Assembly: GCA_963668315.1 (NCBI GenBank)
Contig: OY764216.1
Coordinates: 4,960,001 to 5,024,000, forward strand
DNA length: 64,000 nucleotides
Origin: Spirochaetia bacterium
Lineage (GTDB): Bacteria; Spirochaetota; Spirochaetia; DSM-2461
Direction of reading: 5' to 3'
Both the position numbers and the translations under genes were made by a program. The notes beneath the pieces were generated by a model. The model was not told where the DNA came from, did no database searches, and saw only the letters and a list, made by a program, of their open reading frames with translations. Below are positions 46,291 to 64,000 of the stretch, one piece after another (positions within the stretch are counted from its first letter, which is position 1; each line of letters begins with the position of its first letter).

Positions 46291-46402
46291 TTCTCACCAA
46301 TTCAGACGGCTGTCCCCGGGACGGCCGTCTTTCTTATGAAAGGGGTATGCCTTCCCGCAAGGAAGCCGCCTATCCCTTTCTTTCATATAAAAAGGTTAAG
46401 AA

Positions 46403-47416: not shown

Positions 47417-47425
47417 GAGGAATCG

Positions 47426-48313
47426 GTGTCATCAACAGCAGCACAGTCAACAGCAAAAGCACTGCCCAAAGACCATCCCATGGCGGAGCTTTTTTATCAG
47501 ATAAGACATAACAGAAGCGCCTCGATAGGCCTTTCTATCATCGTTTTTTTCATTCTCGTCGCCTTTTTCGCCCCCCTGCTGGCCCCCCATGATCCCATCG
47601 TGCAGGATATTTCCATGCGAAAGACCCCGCCTATGACGGCGGGCTATATTCTGGGAGCGGACGACCTGGGCAGGGATATACTGTCCCGCATTATCTACGG
47701 TTCCCGGGTTTCCATGATGATAGGAGTGGTGGCCGTGGGTATCGCCATCATATTCGGCTCCCTCATCGGAATCGTCTCGGCTTATTACGGCGGCTGGATA
47801 GACGTGATCATTATGAGGATCATAGACATCATGCTGGCCTTCCCTTTCATCATCCTGACCATCATCATCGTCTCCATAATGGGGCCCTCCCTTTTTAACG
47901 CCATGATCGCCATCGGCGTTTCCCAGGTGCCCCGATACGCCCGGGTTGTCCGGGCCTCGGTTCTCGCCGAAAAGGAGAACGACTACGTACTGGCCGAACG
48001 CTCCCTGGGAACGGGCGATCTGGAGCTGATGTTCCGGTCCATCTTCCCCAACTGTCTGGCACCCGTATCGGTCCAGGCCACTCTGGGAATCGGCTCGGCC
48101 ATCCTCGAATCGGCCGCTCTCTCCTTCCTGGGGCTGGGCGCCCAGCCGCCCACACCGGAATGGGGACTCATGATCTCCGACGGAAAGGAATTCATCACGA
48201 ACGCCTGGTGGATAGTCACCATGCCCGGTATCGCCACCCTGCTGGCCGTACTGGGGTTCAACCTGCTCGGCGACGGTCTCAGGGACATACTGGATCCCCG
48301 GCTTAAGGATTAG
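47426..48313 (+). CDS. dppC: Dipeptide ABC permease
   Basis: LGADDLGRDI, LSFLGLG..PPTPEWG, GDGLRDILDPR. Confidence 0.9.
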   Translation: MSSTAAQSTAKALPKDHPMAELFYQIRHNRSASIGLSIIVFFILVAFFAPLLAPHDPIVQDISMRKTPPMTAGYILGADDLGRDILSRIIYGSRVSMMIGVVAVGIAIIFGSLIGIVSAYYGGWIDVIIMRIIDIMLAFPFIILTIIIVSIMGPSLFNAMIAIGVSQVPRYARVVRASVLAEKENDYVLAERSLGTGDLELMFRSIFPNCLAPVSVQATLGIGSAILESAALSFLGLGAQPPTPEWGLMISDGKEFITNAWWIVTMPGIATLLAVLGFNLLGDGLRDILDPRLKD

Positions 48314-48324
48314 GGAGGAAAGAC

Positions 48325-49323
48325 ATGTCAGACAAACCATTTATCAGCATCGAAAATCTGGAAGTCCAGTTCAAAACGCGCCGGGGCATCGTCAAGGCTG
48401 TCCGGGGCATCTCCTTCTCCATGGAAAAGGGCGAGACCCTGGCCCTCGTCGGCGAATCGGGCTGCGGAAAATCGGTTACGGCCCACTCCATCAATCAGCT
48501 TATCCCCATGCCTCCCGGCGAGATTACCGGAGGGAAGATCTTCTTCAAGGGGAAGAACCTGCTGGAAGCCGGTAAAAAAGAGATGGAGGCGATTCGGGGC
48601 CAGGAGATCACCATGATTTTCCAGGAACCCATGACCAGTCTGAATCCGGTCTTTCCCATAGGAGAGCAGATAGCGGAAGTCTTTATGACACACCAGGGCA
48701 TGAAGAAGAAAGAAGCCCTTAAAAAAGCGGTGGAGCTGCTGGATCTGGTCAAAATCCCCTCCCCGGCAAAACGGGCCCGCGACTACCCCCACCAGCTCTC
48801 CGGCGGTATGCGCCAGCGTGCCATGATAGCCATGGCCCTCGCGTCACCCGAGCCGGGGCTCCTGATTGCCGACGAGCCCACCACAGCCCTGGACGTGACG
48901 ATACAATCCCAGATCCTGGATCTACTCTCGGACCTGAACAAGAGGGTGGAAATGGCCCTGCTGCTCATTACACACGACATGGGCGTCGTCGCCGAAACGG
49001 CCGACAAGGTGGTCGTCATGTACGCCGGGAGGATCATGGAAGAGGGAACGGTCCATCATATATTCGACAATCCTTCCCATCCCTACACCCTGGGGCTTCT
49101 TAATTCCCTGCCTTCCAACAAAAAATACGAAGGCGCGACACGGCTGGAAGCGATAGAAGGCAGCGTTCCCGATCTTCTGACTCTGGGAGACGGATGTCCC
49201 TTTGCCAACCGCTGCCCCTATGCGGATGAAATATGCGAAGAAAGCTTTCCCGAACGGACGGTTCTTGAAGGAGATCACGCCCTCTCCTGCCATCACCATG
49301 AAAAAGCGGCGCGAGGTAAATAA
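48325..49323 (+). CDS. dppD: Dipeptide ABC ATPase
   Basis: [29 protein letters not shown]-terminal Cys cluster. Confidence 0.9.
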   Translation: MSDKPFISIENLEVQFKTRRGIVKAVRGISFSMEKGETLALVGESGCGKSVTAHSINQLIPMPPGEITGGKIFFKGKNLLEAGKKEMEAIRGQEITMIFQEPMTSLNPVFPIGEQIAEVFMTHQGMKKKEALKKAVELLDLVKIPSPAKRARDYPHQLSGGMRQRAMIAMALASPEPGLLIADEPTTALDVTIQSQILDLLSDLNKRVEMALLLITHDMGVVAETADKVVVMYAGRIMEEGTVHHIFDNPSHPYTLGLLNSLPSNKKYEGATRLEAIEGSVPDLLTLGDGCPFANRCPYADEICEESFPERTVLEGDHALSCHHHEKAARGK

Positions 49324-49325
49324 TC

Positions 49326-50294
49326 ATGAGCATACTGACAGTTAAAGATCTGAAAAAATACTATACGGTCACCTCCGAAACGGGGGCCGAGAAAAAGACA
49401 CTGAAAGCGGTGGACGGGGTTAGCTTTACCCTGAAAAAAGGCGAAATCCTGGGCGTGGTGGGCGAATCGGGCTGCGGCAAATCCACACTGGGCAAAACCA
49501 TTCTCCGCCTTCACGACAAAAATGAAGGAGAAGTGATCCTCCAGGATCAGGATCTTTTCAATCTCTCCCCGGGTGAACTGAAAAAAACCCGCTTGAAAGC
49601 ACAGATGGTCTTTCAGGATCCCTTTTCCTCCCTCAATCCCCGGAAAAGGGTCAAGGACCTTATCGGCCAGCCCCTGCGTATTCACGGCTGGGGCAGCAAG
49701 GCAGAAATAGATGAGCGGGTTTCCTCCCTGATGGAGGAGGTAGGTCTCAACCCCCAGTACCGCACCCGCTTCGCCCACCAGTTCTCCGGCGGCCAGAGAC
49801 AGAGAATCGGCATAGCCCGCGCACTGGCCCTTAACCCGGAATTCATCGTATGCGACGAGGCGGTTTCCGCCCTTGACGTCTCGGTTCAGGCCCAGATCAT
49901 CAATCTTCTGCTGGATCTGCGGGAGAAATATAACCTGACATACATGTTCATCGCCCATGACCTTTCAGTGGTAGAGTTCATCTCCACCCGCATCATCGTC
50001 ATGTATCTGGGACGCATCGTCGAAATGGCCGATAAGGAGGAGCTGGTCAAATCCCATGTTCACCCCTATACCAGGGCCCTTTTTCAGGCGTTCCCCGCCG
50101 CAGACCCCTCTCAGAGGGAAAAGAAAGAGAAAGTGGTGGTAGGAGATGTCCCCTCTCCCATCGATCCGCCCTCGGGCTGTCATTTCCATCCCCGGTGCCC
50201 CTTTGCAGACGAAAAATGCCGCACCCAGTACCCTCCTTTGGAGGAAGTTGCGCCGGGTCATTTCTCGGCCTGCTGGAAGAACAAAACTTTTTAA
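49326..50294 (+). CDS. dppF: Dipeptide ABC ATPase
   Basis: [32 protein letters not shown]. Confidence 0.9.
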
Positions 50295-50313
50295 TTTTTT
50301 TTTGCGATAGCTG

Positions 50314-50342
50314 TTGACAGAAAAAATCCTTTTCTGTATTAT
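50314..50342 (+). promoter_or_regulatory. sigma70 promoter of the tRNA pair
   Basis: TTGACA-17-TATTAT. Confidence 0.8.
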
Positions 50343-50369
50343 AGCCAAGCACATTGAGAGTGCCCCCGA

Positions 50370-50443
50370 GCCCCGGTAGCTCAGTAGGATAGAGCAACTG
50401 CCTCCTAAGCAGTAGGTCATGCGTTCGAATCGCGTTCGGGGTA
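50370..50443 (+). tRNA. tRNA-Arg (CCT)
   Basis: Cloverleaf; anticodon arm ACTGC-CT-CCT-AA-GCAGT; TTCGAAT T-loop. Confidence 0.95.
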
Positions 50444-50465
50444 AAGCTCAAAGTAGCAAAAAAAT

Positions 50466-50539
50466 GGAGGCGTAGCGAAGCTGGTTATCGCGCCGGCCTG
50501 TCAAGCCGGAGATCGCGGGTTCGATCCCCGTCGCTTCCG
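50466..50539 (+). tRNA. tRNA-Asp (GTC)
   Basis: Cloverleaf; anticodon arm CCGGC-CT-GTC-AA-GCCGG; acceptor stem GGAGGCG/CGCTTCC. Confidence 0.95.
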
Positions 50540-50542
50540 CAC

Positions 50543-50575
50543 AAGAGACTATCCCTGGATAGTCTCTTTTTTTTT
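50543..50575 (+). terminator. Intrinsic terminator after the tRNAs
   Basis: AAGAGACTATCC-CT-GGATAGTCTCTT followed by a T tract. Confidence 0.9.
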
Positions 50576-50730
50576 GCCCCCATAGTTTTGGGGAAATCCC
50601 CTCACTCCGCTTCTGCGGGGTCAGCCTTCGGCTCCCCTCCAATCCCTTTTCCTCCCTCATGAAAAGCCCCGAGTAAACAGTCTTAAGTCAAAACGATTAT
50701 ACACTATCGCCTAATGTTATTATAACGAAT

Positions 50731-51531
50731 TCATAAAGGACTCCTTATCCGGCTTAATCGGCTCTCTGCCATATGCAGGTAAACCATAGTCGAGCTAACC
50801 GACGAATGCCCCAGCATCTTCTTTATCGTCTTTACATCAGTCCCATTCTCCAGAAGATGGGTGGCAAAAGAGTGGCGTAAGGTATGACAAGTCGCTTTCC
50901 CTTCCAATCTCGATTTAAGGCAGGCCTTTTCAAATACTATCTGCAGCGTTCTAATGCTGTACTTCCTACCGTTTATCGACTTGAACAAATATTCTCGGGG
51001 CGATCTGTCGCCCATAAGATAAATAAGATCCTCCTTTAACGAGCGGGATATCAGCGTCACGCGGTCTTTCCTCCCCTTCCCCCTCCTCACGGTTAGAGTG
51101 AAACTTGCAAGATCCACGTCACGCACCCGTAAATCGACGACTTCGCTAACCCTGAGTCCGGACCCATATAGCATGGCAATCATCGTCCTATGCCTCAAAT
51201 TTTGCACAGAGGATAGGATAATCAGAATCTCTTCCCTCGAGAGAACGCGGGGCAGTTCTTTATTTCTTCTGGGTCTGTCAAGAACATAGGGACAATCCCT
51301 GTGAATAACCAACCTGTAAAAAGTTTTAATGCAGGCATAACATACCTTCACCGTAGCCGGCTTATCCTCATAAAGTTTCAGAAATCGGAAAATTTGCTCC
51401 CCGGGCTCATAATTATGTCTTCCCGCGAAAGACTCGAATTTATGGAAATAAAACAGATAAGCTCTAATCGTCTTAGCACTGTAATTGCGGATTTTCATCT
51501 CCGCCTCAAAGCGTTCCCCGTATTTAGTCAT
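50731..51531 (-). CDS. Tyrosine recombinase, integron-integrase-like but apparently lacking the I2 insertion
   Basis: N-terminal RNYSAKTIRAY (IntI-like SAM domain), LPRVLS, LYGSGLRVSE, GKGRKDR, HTLRHSFATHLL, LGHSS..TMVY, SPL end; divergent from the cassette array. Confidence 0.9.
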   Translation of the reverse strand: MTKYGERFEAEMKIRNYSAKTIRAYLFYFHKFESFAGRHNYEPGEQIFRFLKLYEDKPATVKVCYACIKTFYRLVIHRDCPYVLDRPRRNKELPRVLSREEILIILSSVQNLRHRTMIAMLYGSGLRVSEVVDLRVRDVDLASFTLTVRRGKGRKDRVTLISRSLKEDLIYLMGDRSPREYLFKSINGRKYSIRTLQIVFEKACLKSRLEGKATCHTLRHSFATHLLENGTDVKTIKKMLGHSSVSSTMVYLHMAESRLSRIRSPL

Positions 51532-51603
51532 ATAAACTCCTGTTTTATTAAGCGCAGTTTTTTTGCTATTTCATGCAAAATAACTGCGAACAGGAATATA
51601 ATA

Positions 51604-51641
51604 TTGAAGGATTAATGAAATTCGCATAAGATACGTTAGAT
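51604..51641 (+). promoter_or_regulatory. attI-like site with an overlapping Pc-like promoter
   Basis: G/TTAGAT at 51635-51641 is complementary to the end of cassette 1 (GCATCTAAC, 52045-52053); no left hairpin arm; TTGAAG-17-TAAGAT at 51604-51632. Confidence 0.7.
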
Positions 51642-51662
51642 GCAACTTTTTTGAAGGATTGA

Positions 51663-52052
51663 ATGAGAAAAATAGACATTATACAAGAACTTAAAAATTC
51701 CAATTTAGACCTATCGAAGGTATGGACTTTATGTGGAACAGCAATGGTTTTACATGAATTGCGGGAAACAACATCTGACATTGATTTAGGGTGTTCATCT
51801 CAATATTTCAATGAACTTCTTAAAAATAACTTTCCTGTTAAAACCTGGGAGAATGGCGACCGTTCGATACATTACACTGGAAATATTGAGATATTTGAAG
51901 AATGGAATATAAACGAGAAAAATTATTTTGATGGCATTGCAACTTCATCTGTAAATGATCTAATAGAACAAAAAGAATCTTTAAACAGAGAAAAAGATAA
52001 AAAAGATCTAGAAGTTCTTTATGCTAAACGTCTCCAAAAAAGCAGCATCTAA
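51663..52052 (+). CDS. Cassette 1: nucleotidyltransferase-fold protein
   Basis: hCGTAMVLHELRETTSDIDL (G..DxD NTase-like) and C-terminal REKDKKD; stop codon lies inside R''. Confidence 0.6.
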   Translation: MRKIDIIQELKNSNLDLSKVWTLCGTAMVLHELRETTSDIDLGCSSQYFNELLKNNFPVKTWENGDRSIHYTGNIEIFEEWNINEKNYFDGIATSSVNDLIEQKESLNREKDKKDLEVLYAKRLQKSSI

Positions 52053-52137
52053 CAGACAATATATGCTCCGCTTCGCTGCGGTCTTCGACAAATCTATCAC
52101 TGCGTGATAGACTTCATATATCGTCGGAACGTTATAC
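52047..52137 (+). repeat. attC-like site 1 (91 bp)
   Basis: ATCTAAC-A-GACAATATATG...CATATATCGTC-GGAAC-GTTATAC. Confidence 0.85.
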
Positions 52138-52176
52138 ACAATTTCTTTTTTGAAGATTTTTTTGGAGTATTTGTTG

Positions 52177-53094
52177 ATGAATAAATTATGGCTTTTTGTA
52201 TCAATCATGACCGTTTTTTTGTTTTTTTCTTGCTCTTCTACACCCTATTCAGGAATGGAAATCATTTCAGAAAGTGACGGATATAATTATTACATTGAAA
52301 ATAGTGAATCGAACTCTTTGATCATTTATATTGATGGTAGTGGATATCAATCAGTTTTAGGTCAACGAGATGATTCTGAGAAATGGACCACTACCACCTT
52401 ATCCAATCCACTATCACAGCATTTTAGGAAGAGTTATAATATTCTCATCCCTGAGAAGTTAGATTTTTCTCCTGGAGAAATATATCTTGATAATTCTGAA
52501 GTCCTGAGTAAATCAACGGTTCAGGCTCTTGGATTAAGTTATTCCCAGAAAATAGATAACTTTTTAAGTAATCATAATTTTACTGAAATTATTTTAATAG
52601 GCGCATCAGAAGGAGGTGCCCTTTTACCTTATATTTATAACAATCTGTTACATATAGGTGAAATCAATAAACTAGTAATTTGGAGTGGAGGAGGTCTTAG
52701 TCAACTGAAAGAGTTTCAAATCCTAGGTAATTCGTCAGTTTTAATGCCTGATCAATATCGTGATCTTTGCAAGCAAGTTGATGAAATGGCTGAAGCTATC
52801 AACTCAGAACCTGAAGCTATTGATAAATTTTACCTAGGGCATCCATATATTCGTTGGAGTAGTTTTTTTAAATATGAGCCTATAGATTATATTAGGCAAA
52901 TAGATATTCCCATTTTGTTTATTCACGGAGAGATGGATTGGTCAACACCTGTTGAATCAACACGTATTATTGAAGAATCAAATATTTCTGATCAATTTGA
53001 TTTTATTTATTATCCTAAGATGGAACATAGTCCTTCGTCTTTTGCTGAATTGAAAAGAGTTTTAAAAGACATTGAGGAATGGATACTTGGTTGA
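52177..53094 (+). CDS. Cassette 2: alpha/beta hydrolase lipoprotein
   Basis: Lipobox FFSC; DGSG, GASEG nucleophile, HGEMD, MEH. Confidence 0.82.
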   Translation: MNKLWLFVSIMTVFLFFSCSSTPYSGMEIISESDGYNYYIENSESNSLIIYIDGSGYQSVLGQRDDSEKWTTTTLSNPLSQHFRKSYNILIPEKLDFSPGEIYLDNSEVLSKSTVQALGLSYSQKIDNFLSNHNFTEIILIGASEGGALLPYIYNNLLHIGEINKLVIWSGGGLSQLKEFQILGNSSVLMPDQYRDLCKQVDEMAEAINSEPEAIDKFYLGHPYIRWSSFFKYEPIDYIRQIDIPILFIHGEMDWSTPVESTRIIEESNISDQFDFIYYPKMEHSPSSFAELKRVLKDIEEWILG

Positions 53095-53117
53095 ACACCG
53101 TTCAAAAAAGAAACTGT

Positions 53118-53262
53118 GTATAACAGAGAATATACGGCTCCGCTTCGCTCCGGCCCAAATTGTTTCTTTGACAAATCTCAAAAAAAGTAGTTATACTTTT
53201 TCCGAGATTTATCAACCCCACAAGGGGGCGAAACAACTTCGTATATTCTCGAAACGTTATAG
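53118..53262 (+). repeat. attC-like site 2 (145 bp)
   Basis: GTATAAC-A-GAGAATATACG...CGTATATTCTC-GAAAC-GTTATAG. Confidence 0.88.
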
Positions 53263-53291
53263 GAAATTTACAATATGCGTATAAGGAAAAC

Positions 53292-53606
53292 ATGGTGGAA
53301 TTAACCTCAGAAGAATTCGACAATACATTTACATCCAATTTCAATGAAGTTACTGAAACGGCAGAAAATTTTAATGGCAAAGATTTTGATCAATATGTTA
53401 AGTCGAATTTAATTGATGAACTTGGTGTTATGCAAATTGAATATATCTATGATACTAAAGATGGAAATTGGAGACATGTCATATTCAAAACACAACTGAA
53501 AAACATTAATTATGTGGTTGTCATAGATATAAATAAGAAAACTATTCTCGGGCACCATGTTTTAGATTTAAACGAAAAATATGGATTAAACGCTTTGGGA
53601 TTGTAA
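53292..53606 (+). CDS. Cassette 3: hypothetical protein
   Basis: RBS AAGGA; fills the cassette. Confidence 0.75.
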   Translation: MVELTSEEFDNTFTSNFNEVTETAENFNGKDFDQYVKSNLIDELGVMQIEYIYDTKDGNWRHVIFKTQLKNINYVVVIDINKKTILGHHVLDLNEKYGLNALGL

Positions 53607-53611
53607 ACTTC

Positions 53612-53757
53612 CTATAACAGCAAATGATGCGGTTACGGCTTTGCCTTCTCCCAAATTGCCTTTGACAAATACAGAAAAAAGTATGTTATACTTTTCCCTG
53701 TATTTATCAACCCCTTCGGGGTACCAGGCAACTTCGCATATTTGCGAAACGTTATGT
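53612..53757 (+). repeat. attC-like site 3 (146 bp)
   Basis: CTATAAC-A-GCAAAT[G]ATGCG...CGCATATTTGC-GAAAC-GTTATGT. Confidence 0.88.
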
Positions 53758-53817
53758 TCAATGCCCATTTTTAAAAGCTTGTTGTAGCCTCGCCCTTCCA
53801 TGGGCTCGGAGAAGATT

Positions 53818-55320
53818 ATGAAGAAACAAATATTTTCATATATAAATCTACTTAAAGAGTATATGATCCAGTGCGAAGGCAAAATAATAATTTCCCCTTA
53901 TCATTCAGATGTAAAAAAAATAAGATCAGTCGTAAAAAATGAAAGTGCTTTATTTAATAATGTTGTGTTTCGATGTTCAGATAGCGTTGAAATAAAAGAG
54001 CAAAATGAAAAAGAGACATTATTGTTTTCAATCATTTCCGAAGCACTACACAAACCCGATGATTATTATGAAAAATACAAACCAGAATTATTCCGAATAA
54101 AAAACAATCTGCAAGAAGTTTTATCAAAGGTTTTTCAAGAATATAAAAAGAATAGATCTTTCTGTAAAATAATAGCTGATTCTATTGGGTACAAGACATA
54201 CTCAATTCCAGAATCCATAGATTCATTTTTAGGCAAGGAACATTCATATATCTTCTTTTATATTTTTTTAAACCATATTTTTATTGATTTTTTGAAAGCG
54301 AATAATTGTTATGATATAGATACATTTTTAGAGATAGAATCCAATAAATGGTATGATTTTCATAGAAAAAAGTTTGAAGGGATAAAAAATCGGAAAAACT
54401 ACGAATATGAAATTTGTTATTATCTCAATTCGCCTATATGCACTTCTGAAAATGGAACAAAATTAGGAATCTTTAAATACTATGATAAGAATATCTCGTT
54501 ACAAACATCTTACGTTAATGATGATGAATTGGGGACATTAACATATGATTTTTCAGAAAAAGATTACTTAAAATATGTTAACACTAAAATTTCATATAAT
54601 GCTAAAATCCCCATAGAAGCTGAAGTCTCAACTTTTGAGGACTTATATAAAGAAGCAGAAGATATCGGTAAGAGGTTATTGACGAATCTACGATTAGCTT
54701 ATGAATTTGAAATTGGTGTATTAACTTTAAAAATCAAATCAAGGGATCAGTTTACTCCAGATATCAGATCTGGGAACAATATTGAATTTAGTAACAAATA
54801 TACAGCATATTTACCGAAAAGGTTTATTTTTTTTACAGATACACCAATAGATATCCAAGAGACTGACTGCTTAAGACTTTTTAAAAGATTGAACAAAGTT
54901 CAGGAAATAGATGATTGGTTAAAAATTGCCTGTAAAAGGTTTAATCTTTCGATAGATAACTATTTTGTTTATAACCATGACAGATTATTGGATATTGCAA
55001 TCGCATTTGAAGCAATTTTTTTAAATGACAATGAATCGACGAAAGAATTAACATATAGGTTAAGTGTCCGTGCAGCTAAGTTTTTAGGTAAAAATAAGAA
55101 TGAAAAAGAGAATATATTTAAAATTGTAAATGATTTATACAAGTATCGATCAAAGATAGCGCATGGTGTAGATATAAACTCTATGAAACCAAAAGATAGA
55201 GATAGAATTAATGAAATAAATATAGAAGCCCCGATTTTACTTAAACTTTCAATTGTTAAGTCGATTTTTATGAAAAGCAATGATTGGAGAAATTATTGGC
55301 AAACGTTAACTTTAAATTAA
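53818..55320 (+). CDS. Cassette 4: ApeA-like HEPN domain protein
   Basis: C-terminal IAFEAIF..ELTYRLSVRAA..LYKYRSKIAHG (R-x4-H). Confidence 0.75.
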   Translation: MKKQIFSYINLLKEYMIQCEGKIIISPYHSDVKKIRSVVKNESALFNNVVFRCSDSVEIKEQNEKETLLFSIISEALHKPDDYYEKYKPELFRIKNNLQEVLSKVFQEYKKNRSFCKIIADSIGYKTYSIPESIDSFLGKEHSYIFFYIFLNHIFIDFLKANNCYDIDTFLEIESNKWYDFHRKKFEGIKNRKNYEYEICYYLNSPICTSENGTKLGIFKYYDKNISLQTSYVNDDELGTLTYDFSEKDYLKYVNTKISYNAKIPIEAEVSTFEDLYKEAEDIGKRLLTNLRLAYEFEIGVLTLKIKSRDQFTPDIRSGNNIEFSNKYTAYLPKRFIFFTDTPIDIQETDCLRLFKRLNKVQEIDDWLKIACKRFNLSIDNYFVYNHDRLLDIAIAFEAIFLNDNESTKELTYRLSVRAAKFLGKNKNEKENIFKIVNDLYKYRSKIAHGVDINSMKPKDRDRINEINIEAPILLKLSIVKSIFMKSNDWRNYWQTLTLN

Positions 55321-55397
55321 ACCTGCTACATAATGCCGTCCATGGCATTATGTAGAATTTATACGCACACATTTAAAAATGGGCACTAAACATAACA

Positions 55398-56967
55398 CAT
55401 ATTAGGACCCCATCTGTCAAGGACAAATTTTCCCCTGTTCTATCTAGGTAGAACATTTTTATATGAAGATGAACCGGACCGATAAAGAATGAAGCATTCT
55501 GTCTTGTTTCTCAAACGGGCTGCAGAAAAGATCTGCTCCAAACACACATAGACACTTTAACTCCGTAATTTTACGGCATTATAGAAATACATCCGTACCC
55601 AATCCTGTCATAATCAATGAAAACGGATTTCTTGGGGAATCCAGTTATTTTCGTGATCAGGCTGGTGCAGAATTCTTCCAGACTTTCTCAATCCTGGTTA
55701 TTTAAAACAGGTCGAAGCAGATATCCAATCAGCGAACGCATAATTCTTCTTTCAAATGATAAATACGAATGATAGTCATGCTATAAAAAGCCGTATTTAC
55801 GGTCATTATCTTTTTATGATTATAGTTATACGTTAGGCTTATCTGCTCCACCTGTTATGAACAAAAACGGTCTATATCAAAGGCTTTCCTCCTTTTGAGA
55901 ACATAATATACAGCTCTGGCTAATTTATGGGCCATGATGGAATAGGCTTTCCCGTTTCCAAACTTTTGCACTAATCTCTGATGATATGATTTTATCTCCG
56001 GGCAATAGCGGATGAACATGACGGCCGCTTCGGAGAAAGCCCACTTGAGATTAGCATTGCCGATTTTGGTATTTTTGGATGCATACTGCTTTCCTCCCGA
56101 TTCCCTCTGACACTTGACTACGCGGCAATAGGAAACGAAGTTCTGTACACGAGGAAAACGGTTAATGTCTTCAATTTCATAGAGAATAGTCAGGGCAAGC
56201 ACATCACCTATCCCGGGAATAGATTTCAACAAAGAAAATGCTAGAGGATCAGAATGATTTGCTGCCTTCAAAACACGAGATTCTATCTTCCGGATCTGTT
56301 CGGTTAACGCATCAACGACGGCTATGTCGACTTCCATATTCATTTTGACCGCCGGATCATCAAACCGTTCGAGTAATTCAGTCTTCGAAGCAATCGTAAG
56401 AGAATTGATCCCCTTCTTTATGGTATCGAAATTGTATTGGGTATTGGTATTCTGGATATGAGAAAGAAGATCTGATCTCCTGCGAACAAGATATATTCGC
56501 CGTCTGAAGAGGTCTCGAATAGCTCTGGTTTTCTGTGGGTAGACATAGGCTTGAGGGATCAGGCCACCTTTTAGCAATGCCGCTATCTTCTGGGAATCGA
56601 TTTTATCGTTCTTGGTTTTTCCTCCGCTTATAGCCTTCATGTAGAGGGCGTGGCCAAGGACAAAGGGAATACTGTTTAGCTGGCAGTAATCGGCAATCCA
56701 GTACCATGTGAAAATACACTCGACACAGATGACGATATCATTAAGAAAGGGGGCGATCGCTTGTTGAAGGTGAACCGGATCAGCGATCATGTTTTTATGA
56801 TAGACGATTTCGCCATCCTGGTTCATAATGCAGATATACATCTTTTTCGTGTGGAGATCGATTCCGCAGTAAAAGTTGTGTTGTTGGGTATAAAATTTCA
56901 TAAGGGCTCCTTTGGTTAAGGTTGTTGGAAATTTTAACATAACCACTAGGGGTCCTTATGATTATCA
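55398..56967 (-). mobile_element. IS110-family (IS1111-type) element, copy 1 (1570 bp)
   Basis: Sub-terminal IRs ATTAGGACCCC/GGGGTCCTTAT; CA core on both flanks; no TSD; about 455-bp non-coding region downstream of the transposase. Confidence 0.92.
55855..56901 (-). CDS. IS110 family recombinase/transposase
   Basis: GIDLH, CVE, KNDKIDS (DEDD), SIPGIG, RESGG; ATG at 56901 after AAGGAG. Confidence 0.95.
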   Translation of the reverse strand: MKFYTQQHNFYCGIDLHTKKMYICIMNQDGEIVYHKNMIADPVHLQQAIAPFLNDIVICVECIFTWYWIADYCQLNSIPFVLGHALYMKAISGGKTKNDKIDSQKIAALLKGGLIPQAYVYPQKTRAIRDLFRRRIYLVRRRSDLLSHIQNTNTQYNFDTIKKGINSLTIASKTELLERFDDPAVKMNMEVDIAVVDALTEQIRKIESRVLKAANHSDPLAFSLLKSIPGIGDVLALTILYEIEDINRFPRVQNFVSYCRVVKCQRESGGKQYASKNTKIGNANLKWAFSEAAVMFIRYCPEIKSYHQRLVQKFGNGKAYSIMAHKLARAVYYVLKRRKAFDIDRFCS

Positions 56968-57139
56968 GCGAATATACGCTGCGGCTTCGCCTTGGCCTTC
57001 GGCAAATAAACCCTTTGAAAATATTCTAAAAAATTATGATATAATTTCCCAGAATATTTTCAAGCCCGCAAGGGGCTGGGTTTACTTCGTATATTCGCGG
57101 AACGTTATAGGAAACATATTTTTGGAGATTATTTCGCAA

Positions 57140-57661
57140 ATGAAGAATATACTTGAAATGATAAAGAAAGATGCACGATTGTCATTCTGGAGCGAAGAAA
57201 AATTGGAACTGGAAGGCTTTGAGAGGATTTCAGCGACATTGACAACAATTCATAGATTCATTCTCAGCCCTCTCATTGCATATGTCTTCATTGCAGGTAT
57301 AACCAACATGTTACTAAATGTCTCATCAGTAGAAACATACATGATTATTCTCAGTTTTGTACTTGCCATATTCGTCTTTTACTTTTATGGCTATAGGTTT
57401 CTATCTGCTAATCATGCTTTTTTCGATAGAAAAAGTCGAATTGTTCTAATTTTTCTCCCATATAAGTATAGAATTATAAGTGTAAATAAAGACAACATTT
57501 ATTCAGTCGATGGTACAACATTTAATCCTATTGATTTCGTTACAATTAGAGTTAGAGAAGGAGACAAAGTAAGAAAATATCATTTTGTCTCTTCATTTAG
57601 ATTTTTCAAAGCATACACGGAGCATCCTATTGTTAAAAATATTAGGGAATACCTTAGATAG
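57140..57661 (+). CDS. Cassette 5: hypothetical 2-TM membrane protein (copy 1)
   Basis: ATG after GGAG inside the cassette GTTATAGGA...TCCTATAAC. Confidence 0.75.
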   Translation: MKNILEMIKKDARLSFWSEEKLELEGFERISATLTTIHRFILSPLIAYVFIAGITNMLLNVSSVETYMIILSFVLAIFVFYFYGYRFLSANHAFFDRKSRIVLIFLPYKYRIISVNKDNIYSVDGTTFNPIDFVTIRVREGDKVRKYHFVSSFRFFKAYTEHPIVKNIREYLR

Positions 57662-57694
57662 AACCACGTGCCAAAAAATATGCATCCTATAACA

Positions 57695-59264
57695 CATATT
57701 AGGACCCCATCTGTCAAGGACAAATTTTCCCCTGTTCTATCTAGGTAGAACATTTTTATATGAAGATGAACCGGACCGATAAAGAATGAAGCATTCTGTC
57801 TTGTTTCTCAAACGGGCTGCAGAAAAGATCTGCTCCAAACACACATAGACACTTTAACTCCGTAATTTTACGGCATTATAGAAATACATCCGTACCCAAT
57901 CCTGTCATAATCAATGAAAACGGATTTCTTGGGGAATCCAGTTATTTTCGTGATCAGGCTGGTGCAGAATTCTTCCAGACTTTCTCAATCCTGGTTATTT
58001 AAAACAGGTCGAAGCAGATATCCAATCAGCGAACGCATAATTCTTCTTTCAAATGATAAATACGAATGATAGTCATGCTATAAAAAGCCGTATTTACGGT
58101 CATTATCTTTTTATGATTATAGTTATACGTTAGGCTTATCTGCTCCACCTGTTATGAACAAAAACGGTCTATATCAAAGGCTTTCCTCCTTTTGAGAACA
58201 TAATATACAGCTCTGGCTAATTTATGGGCCATGATGGAATAGGCTTTCCCGTTTCCAAACTTTTGCACTAATCTCTGATGATATGATTTTATCTCCGGGC
58301 AATAGCGGATGAACATGACGGCCGCTTCGGAGAAAGCCCACTTGAGATTAGCATTGCCGATTTTGGTATTTTTGGATGCATACTGCTTTCCTCCCGATTC
58401 CCTCTGACACTTGACTACGCGGCAATAGGAAACGAAGTTCTGTACACGAGGAAAACGGTTAATGTCTTCAATTTCATAGAGAATAGTCAGGGCAAGCACA
58501 TCACCTATCCCGGGAATAGATTTCAACAAAGAAAATGCTAGAGGATCAGAATGATTTGCTGCCTTCAAAACACGAGATTCTATCTTCCGGATCTGTTCGG
58601 TTAACGCATCAACGACGGCTATGTCGACTTCCATATTCATTTTGACCGCCGGATCATCAAACCGTTCGAGTAATTCAGTCTTCGAAGCAATCGTAAGAGA
58701 ATTGATCCCCTTCTTTATGGTATCGAAATTGTATTGGGTATTGGTATTCTGGATATGAGAAAGAAGATCTGATCTCCTGCGAACAAGATATATTCGCCGT
58801 CTGAAGAGGTCTCGAATAGCTCTGGTTTTCTGTGGGTAGACATAGGCTTGAGGGATCAGGCCACCTTTTAGCAATGCCGCTATCTTCTGGGAATCGATTT
58901 TATCGTTCTTGGTTTTTCCTCCGCTTATAGCCTTCATGTAGAGGGCGTGGCCAAGGACAAAGGGAATACTGTTTAGCTGGCAGTAATCGGCAATCCAGTA
59001 CCATGTGAAAATACACTCGACACAGATGACGATATCATTAAGAAAGGGGGCGATCGCTTGTTGAAGGTGAACCGGATCAGCGATCATGTTTTTATGATAG
59101 ACGATTTCGCCATCCTGGTTCATAATGCAGATATACATCTTTTTCGTGTGGAGATCGATTCCGCAGTAAAAGTTGTGTTGTTGGGTATAAAATTTCATAA
59201 GGGCTCCTTTGGTTAAGGTTGTTGGAAATTTTAACATAACCACTAGGGGTCCTTATGATTATCA
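57695..59264 (-). mobile_element. IS110-family element, copy 2
   Basis: Same as copy 1, offset 2297 bp. Confidence 0.92.
58152..59198 (-). CDS. IS110 family recombinase/transposase
   Basis: Protein identical to copy 1. Confidence 0.95.
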   Translation of the reverse strand: MKFYTQQHNFYCGIDLHTKKMYICIMNQDGEIVYHKNMIADPVHLQQAIAPFLNDIVICVECIFTWYWIADYCQLNSIPFVLGHALYMKAISGGKTKNDKIDSQKIAALLKGGLIPQAYVYPQKTRAIRDLFRRRIYLVRRRSDLLSHIQNTNTQYNFDTIKKGINSLTIASKTELLERFDDPAVKMNMEVDIAVVDALTEQIRKIESRVLKAANHSDPLAFSLLKSIPGIGDVLALTILYEIEDINRFPRVQNFVSYCRVVKCQRESGGKQYASKNTKIGNANLKWAFSEAAVMFIRYCPEIKSYHQRLVQKFGNGKAYSIMAHKLARAVYYVLKRRKAFDIDRFCS

Positions 59265-59436
59265 GCGAATATACGCTGCGGCTTCGCCTTGGCCTTCGGC
59301 AAATAAACCCTTTGAAAATATTCTAAAAAATTATGATATAATTTCCCAGAATATTTTCAAGCCCGCAAGGGGCTGGGTTTACTTCGTATATTCGCGGAAC
59401 GTTATAGGAAACATATTTTTGGAGATTATTTCGCAA

Positions 59437-59958
59437 ATGAAGAATATACTTGAAATGATAAAGAAAGATGCACGATTGTCATTCTGGAGCGAAGAAAAAT
59501 TGGAACTGGAAGGCTTTGAGAGGATTTCAGCGACATTGACAACAATTCATAGATTCATTCTCAGCCCTCTCATTGCATATGTCTTCATTGCAGGTATAAC
59601 CAACATGTTACTAAATGTCTCATCAGTAGAAACATACATGATTATTCTCAGTTTTGTACTTGCCATATTCGTCTTTTACTTTTATGGCTATAGGTTTCTA
59701 TCTGCTAATCATGCTTTTTTCGATAGAAAAAGTCGAATTGTTCTAATTTTTCTCCCATATAAGTATAGAATTATAAGTGTAAATAAAGACAACATTTATT
59801 CAGTCGATGGTACAACATTTAATCCTATTGATTTCGTTACAATTAGAGTTAGAGAAGGAGACAAAGTAAGAAAATATCATTTTGTCTCTTCATTTAGATT
59901 TTTCAAAGCATACACGGAGCATCCTATTGTTAAAAATATTAGGGAATACCTTAGATAG
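59437..59958 (+). CDS. Cassette 5 duplicate: hypothetical membrane protein (copy 2)
   Basis: Protein identical to 57140-57661. Confidence 0.75.
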   Translation: MKNILEMIKKDARLSFWSEEKLELEGFERISATLTTIHRFILSPLIAYVFIAGITNMLLNVSSVETYMIILSFVLAIFVFYFYGYRFLSANHAFFDRKSRIVLIFLPYKYRIISVNKDNIYSVDGTTFNPIDFVTIRVREGDKVRKYHFVSSFRFFKAYTEHPIVKNIREYLR

Positions 59959-59991
59959 AACCACGTGCCAAAAAATATGCATCCTATAACA

Positions 59992-61561
59992 CATATTAGG
60001 ACCCCATCTGTCAAGGACAAATTTTCCCCTGTTCTATCTAGGTAGAACATTTTTATATGAAGATGAACCGGACCGATAAAGAATGAAGCATTCTGTCTTG
60101 TTTCTCAAACGGGCTGCAGAAAAGATCTGCTCCAAACACACATAGACACTTTAACTCCGTAATTTTACGGCATTATAGAAATACATCCGTACCCAATCCT
60201 GTCATAATCAATGAAAACGGATTTCTTGGGGAATCCAGTTATTTTCGTGATCAGGCTGGTGCAGAATTCTTCCAGACTTTCTCAATCCTGGTTATTTAAA
60301 ACAGGTCGAAGCAGATATCCAATCAGCGAACGCATAATTCTTCTTTCAAATGATAAATACGAATGATAGTCATGCTATAAAAAGCCGTATTTACGGTCAT
60401 TATCTTTTTATGATTATAGTTATACGTTAGGCTTATCTGCTCCACCTGTTATGAACAAAAACGGTCTATATCAAAGGCTTTCCTCCTTTTGAGAACATAA
60501 TATACAGCTCTGGCTAATTTATGGGCCATGATGGAATAGGCTTTCCCGTTTCCAAACTTTTGCACTAATCTCTGATGATATGATTTTATCTCCGGGCAAT
60601 AGCGGATGAACATGACGGCCGCTTCGGAGAAAGCCCACTTGAGATTAGCATTGCCGATTTTGGTATTTTTGGATGCATACTGCTTTCCTCCCGATTCCCT
60701 CTGACACTTGACTACGCGGCAATAGGAAACGAAGTTCTGTACACGAGGAAAACGGTTAATGTCTTCAATTTCATAGAGAATAGTCAGGGCAAGCACATCA
60801 CCTATCCCGGGAATAGATTTCAACAAAGAAAATGCTAGAGGATCAGAATGATTTGCTGCCTTCAAAACACGAGATTCTATCTTCCGGATCTGTTCGGTTA
60901 ACGCATCAACGACGGCTATGTCGACTTCCATATTCATTTTGACCGCCGGATCATCAAACCGTTCGAGTAATTCAGTCTTCGAAGCAATCGTAAGAGAATT
61001 GATCCCCTTCTTTATGGTATCGAAATTGTATTGGGTATTGGTATTCTGGATATGAGAAAGAAGATCTGATCTCCTGCGAACAAGATATATTCGCCGTCTG
61101 AAGAGGTCTCGAATAGCTCTGGTTTTCTGTGGGTAGACATAGGCTTGAGGGATCAGGCCACCTTTTAGCAATGCCGCTATCTTCTGGGAATCGATTTTAT
61201 CGTTCTTGGTTTTTCCTCCGCTTATAGCCTTCATGTAGAGGGCGTGGCCAAGGACAAAGGGAATACTGTTTAGCTGGCAGTAATCGGCAATCCAGTACCA
61301 TGTGAAAATACACTCGACACAGATGACGATATCATTAAGAAAGGGGGCGATCGCTTGTTGAAGGTGAACCGGATCAGCGATCATGTTTTTATGATAGACG
61401 ATTTCGCCATCCTGGTTCATAATGCAGATATACATCTTTTTCGTGTGGAGATCGATTCCGCAGTAAAAGTTGTGTTGTTGGGTATAAAATTTCATAAGGG
61501 CTCCTTTGGTTAAGGTTGTTGGAAATTTTAACATAACCACTAGGGGTCCTTATGATTATCA
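59992..61561 (-). mobile_element. IS110-family element, copy 3
   Basis: Same as copy 1, offset 4594 bp. Confidence 0.92.
60449..61495 (-). CDS. IS110 family recombinase/transposase
   Basis: Protein identical to copy 1. Confidence 0.95.
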   Translation of the reverse strand: MKFYTQQHNFYCGIDLHTKKMYICIMNQDGEIVYHKNMIADPVHLQQAIAPFLNDIVICVECIFTWYWIADYCQLNSIPFVLGHALYMKAISGGKTKNDKIDSQKIAALLKGGLIPQAYVYPQKTRAIRDLFRRRIYLVRRRSDLLSHIQNTNTQYNFDTIKKGINSLTIASKTELLERFDDPAVKMNMEVDIAVVDALTEQIRKIESRVLKAANHSDPLAFSLLKSIPGIGDVLALTILYEIEDINRFPRVQNFVSYCRVVKCQRESGGKQYASKNTKIGNANLKWAFSEAAVMFIRYCPEIKSYHQRLVQKFGNGKAYSIMAHKLARAVYYVLKRRKAFDIDRFCS

Positions 61562-61655
61562 GCGTCTATATGCTCCGCTTCGCTCCGGGCTTCGCCAAAT
61601 TTAAATCAAAAAGAATTACAGCGAAAATAACAAATAGTACGCTATAATAGATTCT

Positions 61656-61755
61656 ATACAACAATAAAATGCTACGGTCATGGCTATCGTCACGGTTTCT
61701 GCTTGCGCACAAACCGCGCCAACTTCACGCCATGCCGCAGATTTTGGCGTTGTAT
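61656..61755 (+). repeat. Nested canonical-geometry attC (100 bp)
   Basis: ATACAAC-AATAA-AAT[G]CTAC-GG[T]CATGGC...GCCATGCC-GCAGATT-TTGGC-GTTGTAT. Confidence 0.7.
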
Positions 61756-61853
61756 AGAAATCGGATATGCAAGCACGTGTTTTTGATTTAAACTTCATAT
61801 AAACGCGAAACGTTAGGTGTAATGTTCTTTTTATACAGCGTAAAGGATAAGAA

Positions 61854-62303
61854 ATGAAAACAAAATTTTCACATGTAAATATTATTAGTAGTGATTGGAA
61901 AAAATTAGCAGATTTTTATATTAGAGTTTTTGATTGTAAACCAAAACTTCCGGAGAGAAATCTTTCAGGTGATTGGGTTGATAAATTAACTGATTTATCA
62001 AATGCTAGAATAAAAGGGATGCACTTAATCCTCCCGGGTTATGACACCGATGGTCCCACTTTAGAGATCTTTGAATACAATGCAAATATAAGTAATAATG
62101 GTAAAAATATAAATCTGGAAGGGTTTGGTCATATTGCTTTTGCGGTAGAGGATGTTGAGGAAAAGTTAAATCTTTTATTGGATAACGGTGGATCTTCAGT
62201 CGGTCAATTGATTGACGCTGAAATAGATGGAGTCGGCAAAATCTCAGTTGTTTATGCAAAAGATCCAGAAGGCAATATTTTAGAAATTCAAAAGTGGGAA
62301 TAA
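61854..62303 (+). CDS. Cassette: VOC/glyoxalase family protein
   Basis: HVNI, LEIFEY, GHIAFAVEDV, DPEGNILEI. Confidence 0.92.
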   Translation: MKTKFSHVNIISSDWKKLADFYIRVFDCKPKLPERNLSGDWVDKLTDLSNARIKGMHLILPGYDTDGPTLEIFEYNANISNNGKNINLEGFGHIAFAVEDVEEKLNLLLDNGGSSVGQLIDAEIDGVGKISVVYAKDPEGNILEIQKWE

Positions 62304-62315
62304 AAAGAACACTAC

Positions 62316-62459
62316 ACCTAACAGCAAATGATGCGGTTCCGCTCCGCTTCACCCAAATTGCCTTTGACAAATACCCGTTCAATTATGATATAATTGAACA
62401 GCCATTTATCAACCCCTATTGGGGTACAGGCAACTTCGCATATTTGCGGAACGTTACCC
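62316..62459 (+). repeat. attC-like site (144 bp)
   Basis: ACCTAAC-A-GCAAAT[G]ATGCG...CGCATATTTGC-GGAAC-GTTACCC. Confidence 0.88.
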
Positions 62460-62523
62460 ATTATTATTTGGCTTATAATATTTTTTTTCATCATTCGCCA
62501 TCCTTGGCTCATTAGGGGAAATT

Positions 62524-62994
62524 TTGGATTTATCTGAATATAGTGTTAAAGAATTACTGATACTAATCTCTGATATCATGAAAGAGCTGATCTCAAGAAG
62601 AATTATTAGAACATTTAATAATCCTGTTGGTGATTATACGGAGTGGCTTGTTTCATCACGGTTAAATTATACGCTTGAAAATAATTCAAAAGCTGGTTTC
62701 GATGCAACTTCCAGTACCGGACAAAGGGTTCAGATAAAGGGAAGAAGAGTCACTCCATGGAATAAATCTCACCAGTTAAGTGCAATCAGAAATCTTGATT
62801 CAAAGGATTTTGATACACTAGCAGCTGTTATTTTTGATGAAGATTACAACGTAATTGAAGCGAAAATGATTCCTCAGGAAATCATTCATGAGTATGCAAA
62901 TTACCGAGAGCATGTTAATGCACATATTTTAATCTTACAAGGTGATATTCTCAACGACAATCGAGTAAAAGATATCAAAAAGGATTTGATATAG
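62524..62994 (+). CDS. Cassette: DUF6998-like putative PD-(D/E)xK nuclease
   Basis: NNPVGDYTEWL..AGFDA..RVQIKGRR. Confidence 0.6.
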   Translation: MDLSEYSVKELLILISDIMKELISRRIIRTFNNPVGDYTEWLVSSRLNYTLENNSKAGFDATSSTGQRVQIKGRRVTPWNKSHQLSAIRNLDSKDFDTLAAVIFDEDYNVIEAKMIPQEIIHEYANYREHVNAHILILQGDILNDNRVKDIKKDLI

Positions 62995-63057
62995 ATCGTG
63001 TTTAAAAGTACATCCTTGTACTTTTAAAGAACCTATACGCTGTCGCCAAATAACAAC

Positions 63058-63201
63058 GGGTAACAGCGAATTATGCGGTTTCGCTTCGCTCCACCAAAAT
63101 TGCCTTTGACAAATACCCGTTCAATTATGATATAATTGAACAGCCATTTATCAACCCCGGTGGGGTACCAGGCAACTTCGCATATTCGCGAAACGTTATA
63201 T
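63058..63201 (+). repeat. attC-like site (144 bp)
   Basis: GGGTAAC-A-GCGAAT[T]ATGCG...CGCATATTCGC-GAAAC-GTTATAT. Confidence 0.88.
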
Positions 63202-63248
63202 TCAATAGCCAATTCATGAAAATCTTTTTTAAATTTGGAGAAAATCCT

Positions 63249-64000
63249 TTGAAAGATTATGGGGAATCAAAACAATTACAGTTTCTCAACAAAACTTACA
63301 GTTTTATAAAAGACTGTATTGGAGAATCTCCAGCAGATGTTTTTATTCTAGACAATAGAAAGACATCTGAAAAATTGTTCCTTAAAATCAGCTCTAAAGA
63401 TTTTTCCTTCACTACATATTCTGTTGAACGGGAAATGCTTGTCTTGAAATGGCTAGCAGACAAAACGGATGTACCAACTGTTGTAGACTATTTTGAAAAT
63501 GAGGATTATCAATTTCTTCTGATGAAAAGCATTATTGGATTGCCAATTCTGGACACCGCACCTTCTGGAAATACTATCGTTGATTCTTTTGTCAATGGAA
63601 TAAAGACCTTTCAATCCATCAATGTTGATGATTGCCCTTTTGATAGTTCTATGAAAAAACGATTAAAGGAACTGAAATACCTGGTTAATAAAAATTTGGC
63701 AGCATTTGATGACTTTTATGAAAGTGAGTTGCCATTTGATTCCCCTGAGGATTTAATCAGTTATTTAGAAAATAATATGCATCCAGAGGAAATTGTTTTT
63801 TCCCATGGAGATTTTCAAGAAAGTAATATTTTCATCTCTAAGAAATTAGGTTTCATAGATTGGGGGCGTGGGGGAAAGGCTGATAAATGGTGTGATATTG
63901 CTCATGCTTATCAAAACATTAAAGAGCAATTGGAAGATCAGAAATATATAAACCGATTCTTTGAAAAACTAGAATTAGAACCTGATTGGGACAAGATAAA
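63249..64000 (+). CDS. Cassette: APH(3')-family aminoglycoside phosphotransferase, 3' end outside window
   Basis: Hand translation from TTG after GGAG: KDCIGESPADVF..LFLKI..TTYSVERE..WL..DCPF..RLKELKYL..VFSHGDFQESNIF..GFIDWGRGGKADKWCDIA..PDWDKI; colinear with APH(3')-IIIa motifs. Confidence 0.88.
   Translation, partial: MKDYGESKQLQFLNKTYSFIKDCIGESPADVFILDNRKTSEKLFLKISSKDFSFTTYSVEREMLVLKWLADKTDVPTVVDYFENEDYQFLLMKSIIGLPILDTAPSGNTIVDSFVNGIKTFQSINVDDCPFDSSMKKRLKELKYLVNKNLAAFDDFYESELPFDSPEDLISYLENNMHPEEIVFSHGDFQESNIFISKKLGFIDWGRGGKADKWCDIAHAYQNIKEQLEDQKYINRFFEKLELEPDWDKI

Follow-up and report, generated by a model that had tools for sequence, protein, structure and literature searches.

A short tyrosine recombinase without helix I2 heads a gene-cassette array with its own site type in a spirochaete: a probable second type of integron

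Results

Organization of the locus

The stretch of DNA analysed here, referred to as the window, comprises 64,000 nucleotides (G000:C1:4960001-5024000) of a 5.62-Mb spirochaete genome (G000) available as a single contig. Its last part carries a tyrosine recombinase gene, an insertion site resembling attI and an array of gene cassettes that extends beyond the window to about 5,031,600 in the genome. Source-sample contigs match the window at 50512-55390. The cassettes mostly hold one open reading frame (ORF) each and share one orientation, and the order and content of the array change. An initial annotation, made from the window sequence, proposed a distinct integron-like class with a short integrase and atypical sites. 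The proposal was supported by a profile of the IntI-specific region, by the segregation of site types and by the close homologues, which head arrays. We read the system, with a probability of about three in four, as a second type of integron in which a short recombinase without helix I2 likely moves cassettes via a folded single strand, and which likely trades cassettes with the IntI integron via dual sites. The features, with positions in the window, are as follows (IS, insertion sequence).

50731..51531, minus strand: tyrosine recombinase of 266 aa with PF00589 and PF13495 (IntI-type N-domain) and a C-terminal SPL end, with neither an I2 segment nor a beta-4,5 hairpin
51619..51646, plus strand: attI-like site with two 11-bp arms, a 6-bp spacer, crossover G/TT at 51635/51636 and no hairpin
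51635..52130, plus strand: cassette 1; 129-aa ORF without Pfam match; 83-nt site at 52051-52133
52131..53255, plus strand: cassette 2; 314-aa ORF with weak hydrolase-family matches below cut-off; 137-nt site (53122-53258) containing a promoter-like element (53168-53197)
53256..53750, plus strand: cassette 3; 104-aa ORF; 138-nt site (53616-53753) containing a promoter-like element (53662-53692)
53751..57103, plus strand: cassette 4; 506-aa ORF without family match; site cut after AAC (55396) by IS copy 1, the rest at 56967-57106
55397..56966, minus strand: IS copy 1 (IS110/IS1111-type), 1570 bp, with DEDD transposase and subterminal inverted repeats, in the left arm of the site
57104..59400, plus strand: cassette 5; 173-aa ORF, then IS copy 2 (57694-59263), then a repeat of the right part of site 4
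59401..61811, plus strand: duplicate of cassette 5, then IS copy 3 (59991-61560) and a nested site
61561..61814, plus strand: dual site; the outer site is atypical, its left end cut by the IS, and contains a -10-like hexamer (61643-61648) together with a classical-type attC in the loop
61652..61759, plus strand: inner classical-type attC; AAC at 61660-61662, GTT at 61749-61751, 11-bp complementary flanks
61812..62452, plus strand: cassette 6; glyoxalase/VOC-family ORF; 136-nt site (62320-62455) containing a promoter-like element (62364-62394)
62453..63194, plus strand: cassette 7; DUF6998 ORF; 136-nt site (63062-63197) containing a promoter-like element (63106-63136)
63195..64000 and past the window end, plus strand: cassette 8; APH(3')-like aminoglycoside phosphotransferase ORF from 63216 (NF033068, 188 bits against a cut-off of 205)

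The recombinase

The complete R-K-H-R-H-Y catalytic set of tyrosine recombinases, which the initial annotation had read in this protein, is present and conserved: in 80 aligned relatives, out of 120 homologues listed, R127, K152, H216, H242 and Y251 are invariant and R219 is nearly so. The annotation had also estimated that the interval between the GKG patch and HxLRH was about 65 aa, about 40 aa shorter than in IntI1. The spacing from KxxKDR to HxLRH measures 58 residues, compared to 100 in IntI, i.e., 42 fewer, and 64 and 66 in the XerD and XerC of this genome. When aligned to IntI, the window recombinase shows gaps of 9 and 22 residues (31 together) and of 11 residues, 42 in all, which span the regions of helix I2 and the beta-4,5 hairpin. 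According to the accessible part of the report on the VchIntIA structure (PMC3053210), these are the two elements that read the extrahelical bases.

A profile of the IntI region was built from 16 IntI proteins, the genome's own IntI excluded, and 59 rows were searched with it. The window recombinase was not listed among them and the genome's own IntI scored 92.7 bits; the I2-bearing IntI C-terminal match that would have spoken against a distinct class was thus not seen with this profile. The protein is also below every NCBIfam cut-off; TIGR02249 gave 183.5 bits against 265, with the match in two stretches. Its predicted structure has a mean pLDDT of 87.3, helix 163-173 leads directly to residue 181, and the predicted model has no room for I2. 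The best fold match of the model is the integron integrase 2A3V, with XerA behind, and the top structure match based on sequence is an archaeal XerA; NF040815 gave 203 bits. The enzyme is not XerC, XerD or XerA: it falls under all of the cut-offs, distinct XerC and XerD genes are found in the genome, and it stands separate in the tree. In the careful tree (37 rows) the window clade (98/90) and the IntI clade (100/99) both lie in an open polytomy set off from XerC/D (100/99), and the window protein is outside the IntI clade. The nearest named relatives among the matches listed are labelled Spirochaetales. Inspection of the sequence ahead of the gene by eye revealed no LexA-type box, and no IS91-like transposase gene adjoins it. 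A pair formed by a PF13495-like integrase and an IS91-like transposase is found elsewhere in the genome (G000:C1 4637100-4639115); it groups apart from the window clade, in the same radiation.

The insertion site and the cassette sites

The first junction shows no significant fold (z -0.99), in agreement with its earlier description as hairpin-free and attI-like, and a -10-like hexamer, which may belong to a cassette promoter (Pc), was noticed by eye just upstream, at approximately 51599. The 11-6-11 layout recurs in relatives about 100 bp from the start codon of the recombinase gene, and throughout the 17-member clade the short gene is intact and lies at about that distance from the attI-like site. 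A 6-bp spacer between two 11-bp arms is the layout of dif sites. At the other end of the gene, positions 50715-50742, which overlap the stop codon, resemble by eye the left arm of the attI-like heads of two satellite arrays described below, and are possibly a candidate binding site.

All outer cassette sites have the same architecture: AAC, 1 nt, an 11-bp stem, a variable loop, the stem partner, 5 nt and GTT, that is, a 1x5 loop. They are hairpins of 74-319 nt in which the right arm differs from cassette to cassette. A scan based on geometry only, on both strands of the whole 5.62-Mb genome, returned 14 matches: 12 correspond to this array or the two satellites, 2 to background and none to the IntI array. 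The 133 unique sites collected from this genome and its relatives include 82 that are bulge-free and 35 with a G bulge at one position. Several pair types occur at most stem positions of the bulge-free sites, and their top-strand mismatches are A-C/C-A, equivalent to G.T on the bottom strand, in 29 cases and G-T in 3. The bottom-strand fold beats the top-strand fold in all five window sites compared (z -3.2 to -8.6). The extrahelical bases of classical attC sites are not kept in the outer sites, although the bottom-strand bias is present; classical sites are seen only as the inner ones of nested sites. If four bases were looped out of the bottom strand of a cassette site, its spacing would become the 6 bp of attI. 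An Rfam scan of 50000-64000 found two tRNAs and a chance miRNA match only, and no attC-like family.

These features bear on an alternative in which the short recombinase acts like Xer on double-stranded sites, with two exchanges, or together with the host XerC and XerD, and the hairpins serve expression or cassette birth. The dif layout of the attI-like site and the XerA match would agree with it. So would the role given to I2 in the available portion of the paper on its origin (PMC7790495), where it is reported as what blocks the second exchange. However, as double-stranded DNA, a cassette junction would have a 10-bp spacer against the 6 bp of attI, with no spacer homology; the pairing of the distant arms is kept despite changes in the letters, and the mismatches favour the bottom strand. 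Moreover, the right arm varies with each cassette and the enzyme is apart from XerC/XerD in the tree. Fixed 28-bp double-stranded two-arm sites of the XerC/XerD-dif type were not seen, the 11-6-11 layout being present at attI only, and a dif-site search of the genome gave one poor match. We regard this alternative as unlikely and retain the folded single strand as the probable substrate.

Cassette ends and cassette movement

Each complete cassette had been noted to begin with a GTT sequence complementary to its own end. The complements are exact over 10, 10, 8, 9, 9, 10 and 7 nt in seven junction pairs (both 9s represent one duplicated cassette), and over 9 nt in the first cassette (G at 51635). 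The match is longer than noted: start and end agree over approximately 18-19 of the first 20 bases. Cassette ends were then compared between consecutive detected sites 60-3000 bp apart, pairs without a match in the first 7 bases being dropped and left uncounted. In 82 unique atypical cassettes the ends match at a rate of about 0.9 to position 15, with drops to 0.78 at position 10 and to 0.15 at position 11, where the difference is mostly A against G. Over positions 8-20 these cassettes have a median of 10/13 matches (cross-pair control mean, 4.3), while in 26 IntI-array cassettes the match stops at position 9 and the median is 4/13 (control mean, 3.6). One cassette-end repeat recurs at cassette starts in G453 (locus L177), in G364 (L200) and at 53751 in the window, which suggests that end scaffolds may be reused in the birth of cassettes. 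Runs of near-identical short cassettes occur about 435 bp apart in G453 (L177) and 399 bp apart in the IntI array of G006 (L235).

Cassettes shared between arrays define the borders of the moving unit. The DUF6998 cassette, at position 8 of the window array (the duplicate counted twice), is the first cassette in G001. Identity between the two is 33/60 before GTT, 56/60 after it and 52/60 at the end; the downstream hairpin is identical at 112/140 positions, and there is no identity past the next G/TT. In the second case, a methyltransferase cassette located just beyond the window (array A) and its counterpart in satellite B are identical at 752 of 760 positions from GTT. These identity boundaries place the crossover at the right-hand G/TT, as in integrons. 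By the borders of the shared cassettes the hairpin is shown to travel with the upstream gene, and the moving unit is GTT-gene-AAC-hairpin. A related copy of cassette 4 is present on contigs of sequencing run X5.

The array has also been modified by insertion sequences. Five identical (100%) IS1111-type copies exist in the genome. Each has entered an atypical site at one fixed position of the left arm, and the IntI array is free of them; three of the copies split three of the nine junction sites in the window. The element has the features of the IS1111 family, namely a DEDD transposase, subterminal inverted repeats, a long non-coding region downstream of tnp and a fixed target. Within the non-coding region, a search for a guide sequence gave a best match to the target of 7 nt, which was not significant. 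In the assembled sequence, the segment 55392-61566 is an exact tandem repeat with a 2297-bp unit (2297/2297 bases identical), a duplication best explained, from its sequence, by recombination between IS copies.

These modifications raise the possibility that the array is a frozen old relic that changes now only through IS1111 insertion and homologous recombination. The split sites, the exact duplication, the decayed state of the tail and satellites, and the failure to see an excision joint (see Discussion) are in line with it. Yet a cassette identical at 752/760 positions occurs with exact G/TT borders in two arrays of one genome, the catalytic residues are intact, and the first cassettes differ among close relatives. 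We find a frozen relic very hard to credit, and favour an array whose cassettes are moved by the short recombinase.

The satellites are found at G000:C1 approximately 3436000-3445300 (minus strand) and 4546700-4549700 (plus strand). Each has an attI-like head and no adjacent recombinase of the family, and both heads are preceded by the same small Cys-rich ORF. The first adjoins a tRNA-like 3' piece and a phage-type integrase.

The canonical integron and the segregation of site types

Nine tyrosine recombinases were found in the genome, one of which (3134145-3135380) is a full IntI (TIGR02249, 361 bits; full-length match to 2A3V) that heads its own 30-kb low-GC array. This canonical integron (G000:C1 3134145-3165000; L004, L005) has a 411-aa integrase with a long N-terminal extension and an IS-riddled array, in which a PemK/MazF-like ORF occurs twice. 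The genome also has two pairs of tyrosine recombinase genes at G000:C1 3385719-3396305, which we take to be RIT-like.

Two detectors, one for atypical and one for classical sites, were applied in the same way to both kinds of region; they were designed on these site types and count complete sites only. In 14 IntI-headed regions (240.5 kb, four of them site-free) all 63 sites that they found were classical and none was atypical; shuffled sequences gave 2 and 0, respectively. The 27 regions of the short-enzyme type, which add up to 249.3 kb and include two satellites without an adjacent enzyme, yielded 116 atypical and 8 classical sites, and neither kind appeared in shuffles. Of these 8 classical sites, 3 are nested, 4 lie behind an atypical left arm, as seen by inspection, and 1, in G021, is apparently spurious. 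Of 24 genomes of the order, 9 have matches to the right-arm pattern, against 0 for the reversed control; 7 have the short family, with an IS91 association in one of them, and 18 have IntI. G021 carries 37 pattern matches over 154 kb behind a short enzyme; no IntI over the cut-off was found in this genome (93% complete, 3 contigs) or in G001 (96%, 50 contigs), within the limits set by their incompleteness.

The initial annotation had named cassette movement by a canonical IntI elsewhere in the genome as a challenge, and such an enzyme does exist. It could be supposed to move the cassettes in trans, the short recombinase being a passenger or relic. Besides the presence of a full-length IntI, here and in most genomes of the order, this explanation could invoke the inner classical sites already used as crossovers (see below) and the few atypical sites in G012, G022 and G003, which have IntI but no close short enzyme. 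The IntI of this genome does not refute the short recombinase as the mover because it has its own classical array, because the site types segregate and because the G021 array stands in a genome where IntI was not found. The 240.5 kb of IntI-headed regions without a complete atypical site, the lack in atypical sites of the conserved extrahelical bases that IntI reads, and the intact short gene near the attI-like site in the 17-member clade are further arguments against IntI in trans, which we judge improbable. The short recombinase is thus kept as the likely agent.

Spread of the family

Close homologues of the recombinase head arrays of the same site type. A scan of genome contigs with the single protein found 3 loci, one of them close, and a family profile matched 44 of the 251 genomes of the class, some of the members being IS91-associated. 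Of 40 further loci, 18 have sites on the expected side: 9 are divergent and 9 co-oriented with the array downstream, the latter mostly long forms. These 40 loci gave 65 raw site matches compared to 1.7 in shuffles; 2 more have sites recognised by eye and 16 end within 1 kb on the expected side. The family members of about 350 aa (L197-L215, the co-oriented long forms) have an N-terminal extension and arrays downstream of the gene. In G006, atypical sites were found close to IS91-type integrase/transposase elements. A tblastn search with the enzyme produced no match in plasmids (E 1e-40) or phages (E 1e-35).

Homologues not associated with arrays had been named as evidence that would go against the proposal. 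For the close homologues the association stood, but it did not extend to the wider family: of 80 metagenome loci with distant homologues (identity 31-43%; many of the loci are short), real sites were seen at only 3, and 29 have an IS91-like transposase as neighbour. Taken as a whole, the family is therefore not array-specific.

Dual sites

The dual site of the window places a classical-type attC within the loop of an atypical site, a nesting that is new here. The inner attC (61652-61759) folds better as bottom strand (-29.4 kcal/mol) than as top strand (-21.8 kcal/mol). Intact nested sites are also present in satellites B and D (the outer right arm is truncated in B) and in G001, G033, G364, G006 and G380. 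The linker form of the inner site is uncommon, since the linker pattern was found in 7 of 401 genomes. A 15-letter pattern of the inner crossover, run on 301 genomes, lacked specificity and was set aside; one of its matches in the genome studied here was near the IS91-like pair with no site around it.

A circle with a dual site could open at either G/TT. Opening at the inner one would produce a classical junction followed by the atypical right arm, the gene and the atypical left arm. G012, a one-contig genome with IntI in which no short enzyme was found, has exactly this order within its IntI array; the junction is occupied by an IS, the end repeat with its position-11 difference is present, and the sequence farther downstream is decayed. 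The opened form is also present in G003, at a contig end behind an IntI-type attI lookalike, and in G350, behind a classical attC. In the tail of the array studied here, two inner sites run into other DNA, and one of them is 97% identical to the B copy until the inner G/TT. We infer the enzyme responsible for the inner-site joints; the opened forms point to cassettes that may shuttle between the two systems.

Promoter-like elements

The sites of 136-147 nt contain TTGACA, 18-19 bases and TAYAMT, mostly with an upstream TG (extended -10). The element was found in forward orientation in 25 of 90 long sites and in reverse in 5, compared to 1.9 in shuffles; these sites are homologous. Sites of G021 are without the TTGACA/TAYAMT element.

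Neighbouring genes

The tRNA genes next to the recombinase gene are the following.

50370..50540, plus strand: tRNA-Arg(cct) and tRNA-Asp(gtc), adjoining the recombinase gene on its 3' side

This tRNA-adjacent position is not conserved, because the orthologue in G001 has another neighbour. An ordinary ABC-type peptide transporter operon (44677-50294; binding protein, two permeases and two ATPases, by inspection) ends ahead of the tRNA pair.

Discussion

The system described here is real and widespread and is probably integron-like in its working, yet its enzyme lies outside IntI and its outer sites lie outside classical attC. From the anatomy of the sites, the reaction would be a single-strand exchange on the folded bottom strand that is resolved by replication. 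In an excised circle the bottom strand would fold, the end repeats zipping into a long outer stem, with G.T wobbles marking the bottom strand. Four nucleotides looped out beside AAC would leave a core with the 6-bp spacing of attI. Four monomers would then join the folded core to the double-stranded attI, and one strand would be exchanged at G/TT. The second exchange would be blocked by the absent spacer homology and by the spacer bulge, and replication would resolve the junction; the 1x5 loop would therefore replace the extrahelical bases and I2 of the IntI system. The invariant residue Q197 of the recombinase is a candidate reader of this loop. Once in the array, the outer stem would shrink to about 3 bp, favouring insertion over excision. 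In one subclass of sites the extended -10 promoter-like element would drive the next cassette, and the short recombinase as well as IntI could open cassettes that have a classical attC within their site.

Several observations weigh against this reading. The whole terminal stem is part of the lowest-energy fold in two of the five window sites, the other three forming local hairpins. The covariation counts are partly circular because both detectors select for pairing, and kin among the compared sites and genomes are not independent. No clean excision joint was found at 50500-55390 on the contigs of four sequencing runs, where the joints were traced to paralogous sites. Four of the 24 genomes of the order (G012, G022, G003 and G017) have 1-2 pattern matches and no close family member, and G350 has sites in a genome where neither enzyme was found. 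With IntI in 18 of these 24 genomes, help from IntI in trans is hard to exclude, and the G021 and G001 assemblies are incomplete. Four of the 40 further loci (G424, G528, G354b and G481b) have the flank present and no site. The distant metagenome loci seldom have sites, and generic promoter scanning gave no enrichment (47 against 51).

The sedentary chromosomal integrons (2A3V; Treponema, in the accessible part of PMC3607928) are similar in having a divergent recombinase gene, a hairpin-free insertion site, GTT-gene-AAC-hairpin cassettes, the G/TT crossover, the bottom-strand bias and the PF13495 plus PF00589 composition, as well as in the fold match to 2A3V. They differ in that the window enzyme is 42 residues short (I2, beta-4,5) and that the spacer of its attI measures 6 bp. 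Compared to the sites in the IntI array of the same genome, which have a symmetric offset and one bulge, the window sites have the 1x5 loop and mostly no extrahelical base, and the pairing of the cassette ends extends over approximately 20 bp in window-type cassettes against about 9 in IntI arrays.

Recombinases of a comparable kind have been noticed before. In the available text of the IntegronFinder survey of 2016 (PMC4889954), 50 PF00589 recombinases without intI_Cterm were located near attC sites, 21 of them in genomes without IntI, and were judged not to be IntI. They and the CALINs resemble our case in having clusters of attC-like sites beside a tyrosine recombinase without intI_Cterm. 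By the description in the same text, those recombinases are scattered in the tree and have few sites, while here one clade (98/90) has long arrays with their own site type and attI. In what is accessible of PMC8138268, on 'integron-like' simple tyrosine recombinases, the insertion is called essential for integron function and the members without I2 are assigned no cassette arrays. The CTX phage and IMEX provide a mechanistic parallel, since an enzyme without I2 integrates a folded single strand by one exchange (PMC7790495, in its available part); however, they use the host XerC/D at one dif site, whereas here a dedicated enzyme serves many variable array sites. The IS1111-attC group (ISKpn4, ISPst6), as presented in the accessible part of PMC11187229, is similar in that an IS110/IS1111-type element targets one end of cassette sites; in our genome, unlike in that group, 5/5 copies are in atypical sites and none is in the IntI array. 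No description of such arrays was found in the literature searched, which most subscription papers lay beyond.

In the textbook account, integrons depend on the I2 domain to recombine a folded single strand. Since an enzyme without I2, with its own sites, shares the cell with a canonical IntI that serves as an internal control, this requirement becomes directly testable. The accessible part of the paper on the origin of I2 (PMC7790495) remarks on the absence of intermediates. Platforms of this kind would not be classed as complete integrons in surveys that demand the IntI domain.

Should the dual sites act as a bridge, cassettes like the one with the APH(3')-like gene would have a route into IntI integrons. 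With a classical attC and a promoter nested in them, dual sites would let cassettes shuttle, and the I2-free arrays would therefore be, if this is true, a reservoir for ordinary integrons. In the widest interpretation, which we offer tentatively and rate slightly below even odds, spirochaetes may run two integron systems between which dual sites kept for the purpose shuttle cassettes; the I2-free arrays would be a hidden reservoir that includes resistance genes, and the I2-free system perhaps a survivor from before I2.

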